Shown here: positions 28,204 through 34,200 of the stretch, piece after piece
Numbering within the stretch: the stretch's first letter is position 1
Layout of the letters: every line of letters starts with the position of its first letter
Assembly: GCF_051903065.1 (NCBI RefSeq)
Contig: NZ_CP178440.1
From: Escherichia coli
Lineage (GTDB): Bacteria > Pseudomonadota > Gammaproteobacteria > Enterobacterales > Enterobacteriaceae
DNA length: 64,000 nucleotides
Direction: 5' to 3' (one strand)
Position numbers: made by a program

Positions 28204-31200
28204 TAAGAGAGGTGCCGGACGGGGACACGTCCGGCAGACAATCATTATTACCGTTTTGGGAGGTACTAACTATGTCAGTTACAGAGTCTAAGGCAAAAAC
28301 GGAGCGTAAATCCAGCCGTAAACCTGCAAAAACGCAGGAAACAGTCCTGTCTGCCCTGCTGGCGGAGACGGCTGAAGTGAGCGTGCCGCTGGCCTCGCTG
28401 ATTAAGTCACCGCTGAATGTGCGCACGGTGCCGTATTCTGCGGAGTCCGTCAGCGAACTGGCAGAGTCCATTAAAGGTGTCGGCCTGCTGCAGAATCTGG
28501 TTGTCCATGCCCTGCCTGGTGACCGTTACGGTGTCGCCGCAGGTGGTCGCAGGCTGGCGGCACTCAATATGCTGGCAGAGCGTGGCATCCTTCCGGCTGA
28601 CTGGCCTGTCCGCGTGAAGGTCATCCCGCAGGAACTGGCGACGGCGGCATCGATGACCGAGAACGGTCATCGTCGGGATATGCACCCTGCCGAACAGATT
28701 TCCGGATTCCGTGCAATGGCGCAGGAAGGCAAAACACCTGCACAAATCGGTGATTTGCTGGGCTATTCACCCCGCCATGTCCAGCGAATGCTGAAACTGG
28801 CAGACCTTGCGCCTGTCATCCTCGATGCGCTGGCAGAAGACCGCATGGCACTGTTGCAAATAGTCGGTGGTGATAAACTTATCATCCCCTTTTGCTGATG
28901 GAGCTGCACATGAACCCATTCAAAGGCCGGCATTTTCAGCGTGACATCATTCTGTGGGCCGTACGCTGGTACTGCAAATACGGCATCAGTTACCGTGAGC
29001 TGCAGGAGATGCTGGCTGAACGCGGAGTGAATGTCGATCACTCCACGATTTACCGCTGGGTTCAGCGTTATGCGCCTGAAATGGAAAAACGGCTGCGCTG
29101 GTACTGGCGTAACCCTTCCGATCTTTGCCCGTGGCACATGGATGAAACCTACGTGAAGGTCAATGGCCGCTGGGCGTATCTGTACCGGGCCGTCGACAGC
29201 CGGGGCCGCACTGTCGATTTTTATCTCTCCTCCCGTCGTAACAGCAAAGCTGCATACCGGTTTCTGGGTAAAATCCTCAACAACGTGAAGAAGTGGCAGA
29301 TCCCGCGATTCATCAACACGGATAAAGCGCCCGCCTATGGTCGCGCGCTTGCTCTGCTCAAACGCGAAGGCCGGTGCCCGTCTGACGTTGAACACCGACA
29401 GATTAAGTACCGGAACAACGTGATTGAATGCGATCATGGCAAACTGAAACGGATAATCAACGCCACGCTGGGATTTAAATCCATGAAGACGGCTTACGCC
29501 ACCATCAAAGGTATTGAGGTGATGCGTGCACTACGCAAAGGCCAGGCCTCAGCATTTTATTATGGTGATCCCCTGGGCGAAATGCGCCTGGTAAGCAGAG
29601 TTTTTGAAATGTAAGGCCTTTGAATAAGACAAAAGGCTGCCTCATCGCTAACTTTGCAACAGTGCCTTGTGAACCTTATTGATGATCGTACCGATGATAT
29701 TTTGTATGGAAGGCCATGGTACAAAAAATGGACGATGGGGAGAATGATCTCATTTAACACATCTTCGCCTTACGCCAATGCTAATGGAAGATTAAGAAAG
29801 TGGGCAAAAAATAATAATATCAGTTTAAAGTAAGCATCAGAATGAAATTATATGGACGAAAAATTTCTCTATTAACTGCACCATGGCTGGTAAAATCTCT
29901 TACCCTTGATGAAAATACAGGTTCCGTTACTGTTACGGTCGGAATCGCTGAAAATACCTATAACCATCGTAAATGGTTCCACTTTGATACCTGCCTGTTC
30001 ATTACCCAGTGCGCCGTAAAGCCCCGTCCTTCAGGGCGTGGAGGATGTCAAATTAGTAGAAGCCGATGCTGGGAGCAATGTTCCACTACGGGAAGCTGAA
30101 TATGGCGTTCTGAGCCTTCCTACAATTATCGGGGAAGCCCCATCTGCGTACTCCGGATTTTTGTTTATATGATCATGGGATTATATGATTATATCATTTT
30201 GTAACTATTTGATTATGTAATTTTATGATTGCATAATTTTATGAATATGAGATTATTTGAATACTTGGCAGAGGTACTATTTGAACAAAGGGGAGAGGTG
30301 AATGCCTAACGTGATAGCATTTTTAAATGGTAAGGGGGGGGTGTCTAAGACAACCTCGGCAGTTAATATTGCTACTGCTCTTGCTCGTAAGGGTTACAAA
30401 GTTGTTGTTGTGGATACCGATCCCCAGGGAAGTGTTAGTAACTGGTATGATGACAGTAAGTGTGTTTTTGATGTAGCGGAAGCTACGGCAGAAAAAGAAA
30501 TTTACCGTTTGCGGAAGGCGCTTCCTTTGCACGATTTTATCATTATTGATGGTGCTGCTGCGATTTCGGCGATATCGGCGGCTGCTGTTATGGTTTCTGA
30601 TCTTGTTATTATTCCAGTTACTCCTTCGCCGCTTGATTTTGCTGCGTGTGGCGCGATATTGGCAGTGATAGAAGCTCGTCAGGATTTACGCCCGGTGATT
30701 GCTCGCTTTTTGATTACTAAAAAAGTACAGCAAACGCATATGTTATCTTTGCTGAAAGAATCTATTGCAGAAACAAGCATACCAGCATTAAAAACAGGAA
30801 CGTCGTACAGGCAGTCATATATAAGATCTATGCTGGATGGTGGTACTATATTTGATACAAAAGATAGTGCTGCTAAAGGTGAAATATCAGTTATTACAGA
30901 AGAAATACTTGGACTATTAAAATGAGTAAAATGAAACTTGGGAATCATAAGGCAACAAACACTGCTCTGGATGCACTGAAGAAACCTGCGGGAGCAACCA
31001 GAAAGTTACAAATGAATATTCCAGAAGAGTTACATCTTGCATTTAAATTAGCTTGTGTGGAAGATGGCATTGATATGACACAGGTAAATATAGAACTCAT
31101 TCAAAACTGGTTAAAGAGTCGTAACTGATAGTGTTTCAGCCAGTCGTAATCTGCGACGCAAACAAAAAGCGCTGTCCCGCAAGCTCAATGCGGCACTCAA

Positions 31201-34200
31201 CATCCGGCAAAAAGGAATACAGGAACTACAGGCGACGGGACTCGTCGTCACTGCCCATGGAGACCAGCGTAAATCCGTCGTACAGAAGAGGATAAAATGG
31301 GAGAGCAGTTATCGATTCCCTATCCGGGCAGCCCGTTTACGGGCCGTAAGTAACGAAGTTGGATGCAAATGTCAGATCGTGTGCGCCTGTTAGGGCGCGG
31401 CTGGTAAGAGAGCCTTATAGGCGCATTTGAAAAACCTCCGGCTATGCCGGAGGATATTTATTTATCGAGTTCGGTGACCGCCTGGACGGTCACTTCTGAG
31501 ACAAGGCATTTACACAGAATCTTAAACAGGCTCGCTAATTTACCACCCAATGGCAAAACCAGCTCCTAAGTTTGTATCACCACCATTGTTCCATGATGTG
31601 TTGACTCGTATGTTAGCATTCTGGCTCACTTTATATTGAACTCCGGCTGCGATTGCTTGAGCATCACGATAATGCCCCACGCCCATACCAAATGAAAAGC
31701 GCTCATTATTAACATAAGGAATTGATGAAATAGCGGTAACTCCGGCAATACCCGCATTAGCACGCTTTTCGACTCTATCTATTTTTTTATTCATTTGTGA
31801 GAATCTTTGCTCATTTTTCTGCTGTAAATCATTTAATGTTTTATTGAAGTTTTTACCTAATGTATCAACGCTAGATGCAGTATATTTGTTTGCCATTTCT
31901 AGAGTGTTTAAATCACCTTGTTCACGGAGTCTTTTCTCTTCATTGATTGCACTTGTTCTGGCTTTTTTTTCTTCATTTATTCTTGCAACTACTGATTTGC
32001 TGGGGTCTTTTTCTATATTTTTAATTTCATCTTCACTCATGCCTATAGCTTTAGTGACAACATCTAATTGGGACATATTCACAGCATCTGTAGGATTTAC
32101 GCCCCCGGCAAGATTCGTGATTCTTCTGTTTATCATGGGCTCTGTCGTTGTTGCTTCCCTTCCTAAAGATACAACACCATTCTTACTATCTGTGTTCTCT
32201 ACAGCGGTATATTTAGATACAGTATCATCATATTGATTATGCGTTTTCGATCTTGCCCCAAGAGCAATACTGCCTTTTGAATTAGACTCAGATAAATATC
32301 CAATGGAAACAGAATCAGTTTCCTGAGAGGCTGAATATGATCCTAATGCAATACTATTTTTACCAATGGAATGAGACTCTAATCCTATGGCAGAACTGCC
32401 AGAGCCAATTGATAATGATTGACTACCCAATGCTGTACCAAATTCACCAACCACCGTCGAAAAGGAACCTACTGCCGTTCCTTCAATATTGTGGGAACTT
32501 GATTTATATCCCATTACAGATGACGCATATTGATTCCCATATTTCTCCTTAGCATGAGGATCAACAGATGAGTCAACAGAAATATGTCCATCAGCGGATA
32601 CTGTTATTTTTTTACCACTCACATCTAAGGATGAATTATTTTCAGGCAATTTAGTTACTGAAGCTTTGTTACCGATTAAAGTTGAATAGTTTCCTTCTGA
32701 ATCAATTTTCGATCTGGATCCAACTATAGTCGAAAAAGTCCCTGCTTCTGTTGCAGAATCGTATCCTATTACTACTGATGCTCCTGCTCCTCCTTTTTCT
32801 GGTATATTCAAAGACTTAGAATTTGGACCTATTACTACTGAGAAATTTTGTTCTGATCTTGTAGCATCACCAATTCCCTTACCAATAGCGATACTGCCAA
32901 TACCTGAAGATTCTGTATTATCCGCACCAATAGCTATAGATGAGTAGCCTTTAGGATTAGCAGCAAAAGAACAAAGGCTAACACCAGATAATGTTAATAG
33001 TATAGATGATAAAATTAATTTATTATTCATAGCAACATATCCCACCAAAGTAGATAGATTATCGTTATTCCTCGATAAATAAATTGCAATGTAAGATACA
33101 TTAATCTTAACAATGTGTTAACATAAGAGGCTGTTAACACATTTAGTTTATAACATAAAACATCATAAATATTAAGGGCACTGTTGCAAATAGTCGGTGG
33201 TGATAAACTTATCATCCCCTTTTGCTGATGGAGCTGCACATGAACCCATTCAAAGGCCGGCATTTTCAGCGTGACATCATTCTGTGGGCCGTACGCTGGT
33301 ACTGCAAATACGGCATCAGTTACCGTGAGCTGCAGGAGATGCTGGCTGAACGCGGAGTGAATGTCGATCACTCCACGATTTACCGCTGGGTTCAGCGTTA
33401 TGCGCCTGAAATGGAAAAACGGCTGCGCTGGTACTGGCGTAACCCTTCCGATCTTTGCCCGTGGCACATGGATGAAACCTACGTGAAGGTCAATGGCCGC
33501 TGGGCGTATCTGTACCGGGCCGTCGACAGCCGGGGCCGCACTGTCGATTTTTATCTCTCCTCCCGTCGTAACAGCAAAGCTGCATACCGGTTTCTGGGTA
33601 AAATCCTCAACAACGTGAAGAAGTGGCAGATCCCGCGATTCATCAACACGGATAAAGCGCCCGCCTATGGTCGCGCGCTTGCTCTGCTCAAACGCGAAGG
33701 CCGGTGCCCGTCTGACGTTGAACACCGACAGATTAAGTACCGGAACAACGTGATTGAATGCGATCATGGCAAACTGAAACGGATAATCAACGCCACGCTG
33801 GGATTTAAATCCATGAAGACGGCTTACGCCACCATCAAAGGTATTGAGGTGATGCGTGCACTACGCAAAGGCCAGGCCTCAGCATTTTATTATGGTGATC
33901 CCCTGGGCGAAATGCGCCTGGTAAGCAGAGTTTTTGAAATGTAAGGCCTTTGAATAAGACAAAAGGCTGCCTCATCGCTAACTTTGCAACAGTGCCACCG
34001 GAAGTACAGACCATTCGTCGTCTGGTGACCGAAAGTGAAGTGGCGGTGGCGGGGAACAGTAAATTCCGCTTCGTGGGGGCTGATGCCTTCTCGCCAGACG
34101 AACTGCGCACCGATTTGTTCAGCGATGACGGGGACGGTTATGTCGACCGCGTGGCGCTCGATGCTGCCCTGCTGGAAAAACTCCAGGCTGTCGCAGAGTT

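Follow-up and report, generated by a model that had tools for sequence, protein, structure and literature searches.

The stretch of DNA analysed here (64,000 nucleotides of contig NZ_CP178440.1, Escherichia coli assembly GCF_051903065.1; hereafter the window) represents an IncFII, pHN7A8/pT224A-like fosA3/blaCTX-M-55 plasmid of E. coli. A ParB-like gene in its leading region, a homologue of parB2, is interrupted at 28847-33996 by a module of 5,150 base pairs (bp; 820 + 3,510 + 820), in which two directly oriented IS26 copies enclose a partition locus and a gene for a YadA-like trimeric autotransporter adhesin. At the insertion site 96 bp of the ParB-like gene are deleted, and the 3,510 bp between the IS26 copies (the cargo) are of foreign, contiguous origin. 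As for the route, we infer with a probability of about 0.8 that the module is a pseudo-compound-transposon-like remnant of an IS26 cointegrate or translocatable-unit capture, which was followed by an IS26 adjacent deletion. The module and the gene that it interrupts consist of the following features.

28272-28846, plus strand: 5' fragment of the ParB-like gene (parB2 homologue), 191 codons and 2 nucleotides, matching the N-terminus of the intact protein of 652 amino acids (aa)
28847-29666, plus strand: IS26 copy A, 820 bp, with 14-bp terminal inverted repeats and Tnp26 with N184 (G184N allele)
29667-29833, plus strand: 3' remnant of clbS/dfsB (DUF1706), the last 54 codons and stop, in frame from 29669, recognised by comparison with the 172-aa gene of a source contig (L008)
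30162-30289, no strand assigned: array of about 16 units in strict 8-bp register, TGAT/TGAA boxes with AT-rich spacers, identified by autocorrelation and TRF
30302-30925, plus strand: parA, 207 aa, small Walker-type (type Ib) partition ATPase, ParF-like, identified with PDB and NCBIfam
30922-31128, plus strand: parG, 68 aa, predicted ribbon-helix-helix centromere-binding protein, identified with PDB 1p94 and Pfam PF09274
31435-31453, no strand assigned: GC-rich hairpin located where parG and the yadA-like gene converge, with an 8-bp stem and T-runs on both strands
31540-33030, minus strand: yadA-like trimeric autotransporter adhesin gene, 496 aa, identified by Pfam and PDB matches
33031-33190, minus strand: retained yadA upstream DNA (146 bp) and IS26 terminal repeat, covered by a consensus promoter scan
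33177-33996, plus strand: IS26 copy B, 820 bp, in direct orientation relative to copy A
33997-35284, plus strand: 3' fragment of the ParB-like gene, 428 codons, in frame from 33998, placed by alignment to an intact homologue

IS26 copies A and B are 100% identical (0 mismatches). Both ends of the copies show the terminal repeats GGCACTGTTGCAAA / TTTGCAACAGTGCC, and the 234-aa Tnp26 reading frame is open; its G184N allele corresponds to IS26-v1 (PMC9412624). An earlier note on this DNA had described a 5.15-kb module with two direct IS26 copies, a type Ib partition pair with centromere-like iterons, a convergent 496-aa YadA-like adhesin and a ParB-like gene split without target-site duplication, and each of these was recovered (5,150 bp with identical IS26 copies; ParF/ParG homology and a phased array; PF03895 and PF05662 in the adhesin; fragments 28272-28846 and 33997-35284 with differing flanks). 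Like a pseudo-compound transposon, the module has a direct IS26 pair around a passenger and complete insertion sequences with an open transposase gene. An 8-bp target-site duplication around the whole structure, which is expected after copy-in and is not obligatory, is lacking. The outer 8-bp flanks (GACCGCAT vs ACCGGAAG) are not duplicates, nor are the inner ones (TTGTGAAC vs ATATTAAG), and no matching 8-bp flanks in either orientation occurred among all seven IS26 copies or fragments of the window. A second site, which would indicate movement as a unit, was not encountered in the collections searched.

The extent of the deletion was determined against intact ParB-like genes. Compared with the 1,959-bp gene of pST101-1 (652 aa), exactly 96 bp (32 codons) are lost between the two fragments, the left of which ends ...GACCGCAT and the right of which begins ACCGGAAG...; alignment with pT224A gave the same 96-bp gap. 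An accompanying deletion had been one option of the earlier note and is the one that applies. The missing 96 bp were sought elsewhere in the window and not found. Both fragments are otherwise open, and the gene was therefore intact before the event. The 5' fragment scored 58.9 bits with NCBIfam TIGR00180 (parB_part; cutoff 58.45). A natural split at this point was checked for in relatives without IS26 in the ParB-like gene, and these carry the gene intact. Two plasmids considered as further cases of IS26 in this gene, pJJ1886_5 and Esc20 plasmid 3, were rejected, as their ParB-like genes are intact and IS26 is merely nearby.

The cargo has 39% GC, and the flanking leading-region DNA 58-59%. 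Source loci were found through contig look-ups by adhesin protein. Four of them (L008, L009, L011 and L012) contain the entire 3,510 bp contiguously with 2 mismatches, and two chromosome-size records contain it with 1 mismatch (L016, CP189772.1, 4.09 Mb; L017, CP186539.1, 4.24 Mb). The source loci extend beyond both IS26 boundaries of the cargo, in the native order 102-aa protein, 216-aa protein, ClbS, ParA, ParG, (reverse) YadA-like protein, 'virulence factor', DUF5397, helix-turn-helix (HTH) protein and Gp49/RelE toxin. No IS26 was found within 8 kb of the block in these loci. The exact adhesin sequence is indexed in 253 collection blocks, 25 of which have contigs >1 Mb. The chromosomal source records probably belong to Proteus mirabilis, because of the names on co-located proteins (a ParG variant on a 4,241,713-bp contig and close cluster members); GC content and nearest paralogues agree with this origin. 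By these records, the cargo was cut in one piece from a plasmid-like backbone of low GC content, which is in circulation among P. mirabilis chromosomes and in other Enterobacterales. One end of the piece falls within clbS/dfsB, which is truncated by IS26 copy A (Pfam DUF1706 is recorded for the L008 gene), and at the other end 146 bp of the DNA upstream of the adhesin gene are included; the complete partition cassette and the intact adhesin were included by chance.

In L016 (CP189772.1, 1436136-1453626) and L017 (CP186539.1, 1748341-1765831) a plasmid-like gene set lies inside chromosomes of 4.1-4.2 Mb. Besides parA-parG, clbS and the yadA-like adhesin gene it includes a RelE/HTH toxin-antitoxin pair and genes for a LolC-like permease, PliG and a holin, a composition that suggests an integrated plasmid or island.

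In the PLSDB search of the cargo only pM172-1.1 covered most of it, and for its first 291 bp there were 91% matches in pUTI89-like plasmids. From this first pattern the cargo had been taken for a mosaic of a 240-bp pUTI89-like piece, parAG and yadA, an idea that was dropped since all six source loci carry the 3,510 bp contiguously. The search for the parA-parG-adhesin block on other replicons, which the earlier note had proposed, thus led to these six loci and to pM172-1.1. The note's suggestion of a small plasmid captured by IS26 held in part. The nearest free plasmids (about 29-35 kb, E. coli) do share parA-parG at 95%, but they have yjeJ in place of yadA and a backbone in common with the cargo source only in patches (87-95%). 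The near-identical source, a plasmid-like island, was met in chromosomes of about 4.1-4.2 Mb and in unplaced contigs.

Two other F-type plasmids of E. coli share cargo DNA. In pM172-1.1 (NZ_CP058715, from pangolin) the parA-parG-yadA DNA is 99.9% identical to that of the module (window 29906-33176), and the 2020S05-235 plasmid has only yadA from the cargo. Both differ from the module in their boundaries, with an IS91-family element abutting the block, no IS26 at the right end and a site outside the ParB-like gene. Neither was accepted as donor: pM172-1.1 is without the DNA of window 29667-29905, and part of the cargo is absent from the 2020S05-235 plasmid. It is tempting to see in the parFG-yadA block a 'stability plus adhesion' cassette that is recurrently captured from a Proteus plasmid-like island into E. 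coli F-type resistance plasmids through IS26 in the present case and IS91-family elements in the other two plasmids, hence by no fewer than two IS families, and retained for function. The type Ib centromere would then stabilise the plasmid or displace relatives of about 30 kb by partition incompatibility, and the adhesin would alter colonisation by hosts of extended-spectrum beta-lactamase plasmids. We regard this as unlikely.

Three large E. coli plasmids of PLSDB (NZ_CP082074.1, NZ_CP120564.1 and NZ_CP127256.1) contain a 92%-identical yadA-like sequence beside lolC/pliG of the same backbone, and the cargo backbone is therefore scattered across F-type plasmids. The yadA-like sequence is annotated there as two hypothetical proteins and is probably disrupted.

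The junctions of the module were searched for in plasmids, genomes and metagenomes. Queries of 200 bp across the outer ParB-like::IS26 junctions gave no match covering >=80% in PLSDB (72,556 plasmids) or in 5,426 complete E. coli genomes, in which the IS26-bounded cargo was not found either. The inner junctions, searched as exact 29-31-mers, were absent from JGI metagenome contigs. As the junctions were not found elsewhere in the collections searched, there is no sign of movement as a unit. The earlier note had spoken of a unit that moves an adhesin together with a partition function; this was overstated, given a cut clbS, an arbitrary backbone slice and IS26 junctions that occur nowhere else in these collections.

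According to a review of the IS6 family, IS26 forms cointegrates by copy-in, a translocatable unit inserts beside a resident IS26, and intramolecular replicative transposition in cis deletes adjacent DNA and strips flanking repeats (PMC7986276). The simplest history of the module would comprise about four IS26 events, and no fewer than four. IS26 would have entered the donor or parB2, and the donor DNA would have been joined to the F plasmid by copy-in cointegrate formation or, alternatively, by insertion of a translocatable unit (one IS26 and 3.5 kb) at an IS26 of the ParB-like gene or beside it. Intramolecular (cis) deletions by IS26 would have trimmed the donor DNA to 3.5 kb, and an adjacent deletion of 104 bp would have removed 96 bp of the ParB-like gene and one copy of the 8-bp duplication.

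Several points weigh against this history. Intermediates with a single IS26 at either junction, or a donor with IS26 at an inner boundary, were not found in the collections searched, and the order and type of the IS26 events given above are hypothetical. An identical end product could also come from RecA-dependent exchange between the copies of IS26. The module is known as assembled sequence, in which a multi-copy repeat of 820 bp is a classic source of misjoins. The functional consequences (partition activity, adhesin expression, psiB polarity) are predictions from sequence, and the number of sites in the promoter scan was not above that in shuffled sequences.

If IS26-parFG-yadA-IS26 were a self-contained mobile unit, which spreads while its partition function stabilises the recipient and its adhesin benefits the host, one could understand why array, parA, parG and the whole adhesin gene are all kept between IS26 copies that both have the G184N allele, and why the block or its adhesin part was captured independently on two other F plasmids beside IS91-family elements. 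Against such a unit stand the uniqueness of the structure and of all four junctions (PLSDB, complete E. coli genomes, JGI metagenomes), a boundary inside clbS as for an arbitrary cut, the absent target-site duplication and about 250 other occurrences of the block in its native, IS26-free context, and we consider it distinctly improbable. In another route, a pair of IS26 insertions some 96 bp from each other in the ParB-like gene would have undergone a RecA-dependent double crossover with a donor carrying IS26-cargo-IS26. The 96 bp would be replaced and the same product left, with no target-site duplication and with exact loss of the interval between the insertion points. Multiple IS26 copies supply ample homology for it, and the leading region (about 19-40 kb) is already a recombinational mosaic relative to pT224A. 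However, it calls for two independent IS26 insertions within about 100 bp and a pre-existing donor, thus for more coincidences, and no such donor or single-insertion plasmid was found in PLSDB or the complete E. coli genomes; little credence is given to this route.

An assembly artefact, in which genuine DNA of the isolate was misjoined to the ParB-like gene via the 820-bp repeat, is suggested by the multiple IS26 copies within 64 kb and by junctions seen in no other record. Yet the ends of both ParB-like halves coincide exactly with IS26 termini and the loss is a clean 96 bp, so that IS26 is truly inside the gene; the cargo likewise ends exactly at IS26 termini on both sides, and the remaining window is colinear with a complete reference plasmid. 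An artefact is therefore very hard to believe. IS26-mediated capture with a subsequent adjacent deletion is the reading that we adopt.

The host plasmid is >=99.5% identical to pT224A (IncFII, fosA3/blaCTX-M-55, parM-type partition) at window 1-19 kb and 40-64 kb. Window 19-40 kb, the leading region, is a mosaic with 85-98% identity. The module sits within this divergent patch, and from its position it may have arrived together with it.

The partition locus of the cargo is of type Ib. ParA has a deviant Walker A motif (KGGVSKT) and no N-terminal DNA-binding domain. It matched ParF of TP228 (PDB 4dzz) over residues 3-205 with an E-value of 3.7e-70 and about 55% identity, and NCBIfam ParA_partition with 7e-51 (172.7 bits, slightly below the cutoff of 180). 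The start of parG overlaps the stop of parA by 4 nucleotides; ParG matched PDB 1p94 with 4.2e-7 and about 33% identity, and Pfam PF09274 (ParG) is precomputed for the identical product in L008. A spacer of 468 bp separates the clbS/dfsB remnant from parA, and its promoter-proximal 130 bp are the box array. The array consensus is TGATTAT(A/G). Its autocorrelation was 0.52-0.60 at lags of 8, 16, 24 and 32 vs about 0.3 at other lags, a signal reached by none of 5,000 shuffles, and TRF reported a period of 16 with 5.1 copies. The array overlaps a promoter-like site at 30209-30237. Its 8-bp phasing is kept, despite diverged sequence, in front of the parAG of a 34-kb E. coli plasmid, which is 95% identical. 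The array is a candidate centromere/operator of the parH-OF type.

In TP228, parH-OF lies upstream of parFG; there, 20 degenerate ACTC boxes alternate with AT-rich spacers of 4 bp (PMC3130281). The module resembles TP228 parFGH (type Ib) in its small ParA, its overlapping ribbon-helix-helix ParG and an array of about 130 bp of 4-bp boxes in 8-bp register over a promoter. It differs in that its boxes are TGAT/TGAA-like instead of ACTC and its ParG has 68 aa instead of 76 aa; the likeness is known from sequence. As the host plasmid already has parMR, it would gain a second partition locus, of type Ib. An open reading frame (ORF) of 85 aa at 29842-30099 was dismissed as spurious, with no family match and no call in the source contigs. 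The hairpin at 31435-31453 is bidirectional terminator-like by its T-runs. No RNA family was found in an Rfam scan of 28000-36000, and PADLOC gave no noteworthy defence-system match.

The adhesin is laid out with a signal peptide, YadA-head-like repeats, a stalk and a C-terminal YadA anchor. The N-terminus with the signal peptide was read from the sequence (MNNKLILSSILLTLSGVSLCSFA). The anchor matched PF03895 at residues 441-496 (2e-12) as well as the YadA anchor in PDB (2lme), and the stalk matched PF05662 (4e-8). Matches of the head repeats to PF05658 were weak (0.007-0.014); the YadA head (1p9h) and SadA (2yo0) in PDB matched residues 179-344. The protein is identical to P0121, seen on >170 contigs, and to the protein of pM172-1.1, and is therefore intact. 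Disabling mutations were checked for, and none was found. P0001, listed in the database as 100% identical, differs at H220N.

The adhesin gene retains 146 bp of a native upstream spacer of about 454 bp, with a native promoter-like site at 33121-33093 (minus strand; consensus scan). It may be driven from this retained DNA or from a hybrid promoter of the kind reviewed for IS26 (PMC7986276). A hybrid promoter-like site directed toward the adhesin lies on the minus strand, with the -35 element TTGCAA in the IS26 repeat (33189-33184) and the -10 element TATGAT at 33167-33162.

Signal peptide, head repeats, coiled stalk and C-terminal anchor are shared with the YadA family (type Vc; YadA, SadA and the Proteus AipA/TaaP class), but the adhesin is far below the NCBIfam cutoffs of YadA and other named adhesins. 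Its nearest non-identical relatives, P0002 and P0003 (80-84% identity), are uncharacterised and come only from sequencing-run and metagenome assemblies. A further relative is a 67%-identical P. mirabilis protein on a chromosome-size contig of 4.25 Mb.

Among known structures the module is most like the IS26 pseudo-compound transposons and translocatable units (such as Tn4352 and Tn6023; Harmer, Pong and Hall; reviewed in PMC7986276), with which it shares the direct IS26 pair, intact transposase genes and 14-bp repeats. A missing flanking duplication and an adjacent deletion, as seen here, are both documented for intramolecular transposition of IS26 (PMC7986276). Unlike Tn4352/Tn6023-type structures, the module has as passenger a slice of plasmid backbone with a partition cassette and an adhesin and not a resistance gene, and unlike IS26 pseudo-compound transposons it is without the 8-bp duplication; a second occurrence was not found in the collections searched. 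The cargo, which the earlier note had called unusual, is indeed somewhat so, in an otherwise ordinary IS26 product. The module is a new instance of a known mechanism and reveals no new one; non-resistance cargo is uncommon. In this clean, fully resolved case IS26 has trapped non-resistance DNA, and the resistance vehicle, an epidemic fosA3/blaCTX-M-55 F-type plasmid, is thereby linked to both a putative colonisation factor and a second segregation system. The module also shows that leading-region parB2 can be lost. In practice it may serve as a marker by which this plasmid lineage is tracked, and it is a candidate for tests of adhesion, of stability and of incompatibility.

The leading region around the module contains the following genes.

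27332-27910, plus strand: ORF (from the ORF list) whose homologous position is annotated single-stranded DNA-binding protein in pST101-1 and pT224A
35336-35773: psiB, downstream of the 3' fragment of the ParB-like gene
35770-36489: psiA, downstream of psiB

The gene order is ssb, DUF905, ParB-like, psiB and psiA, with an intact ParB-like gene (652 aa) in relatives, and ssb-parB2-psiB-psiA is a conserved cluster (PMC8406263). The insertion is expected to inactivate parB2. Deletion of parB2 in pED208 did not measurably change transfer and SOS response (PMC8406263), and by analogy its loss is likely tolerated in the present plasmid. The 5-kb insert, with its terminator-like hairpin and convergent gene, parts psiB-psiA from ssb and the upstream single-strand promoter region. 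Less psiB may be expressed early, unless transcription that reads through from the tnp26 gene of copy B makes up for it.

The window contains seven copies or fragments of IS26. The copy at 14620-15439 in the resistance region, which has the opposite orientation, adjoins blaCTX-M-55 and is identical to both module copies. Two IS26 alleles are present side by side in the window: copies 7791-8610 and 11033-11852 differ by 2 nucleotides from the three G184N copies, which is consistent with the canonical G184 allele. The copy within window 4393-6900 is split by a 1,680-bp IS91-family element (4674-6353) with a 399-aa transposase ORF (4841-6040, minus strand). This element is absent from pT224A; the two copies on either side of the yadA segment in the 2020S05-235 plasmid (L003) share 99.8-99.9% identity with it.

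A leading-region repeat of about 640 bp is present in three direct copies (23394-24026, 26703-27349 and 37185-37828). The second and third of these, with 99.2% identity, lie on either side of ssb-parB2::module-psiB-psiA, and this whole block of 10.5 kb could be excised if the two recombined. By analogy, the repeats may be the repeated single-strand promoter regions known from F leading regions.

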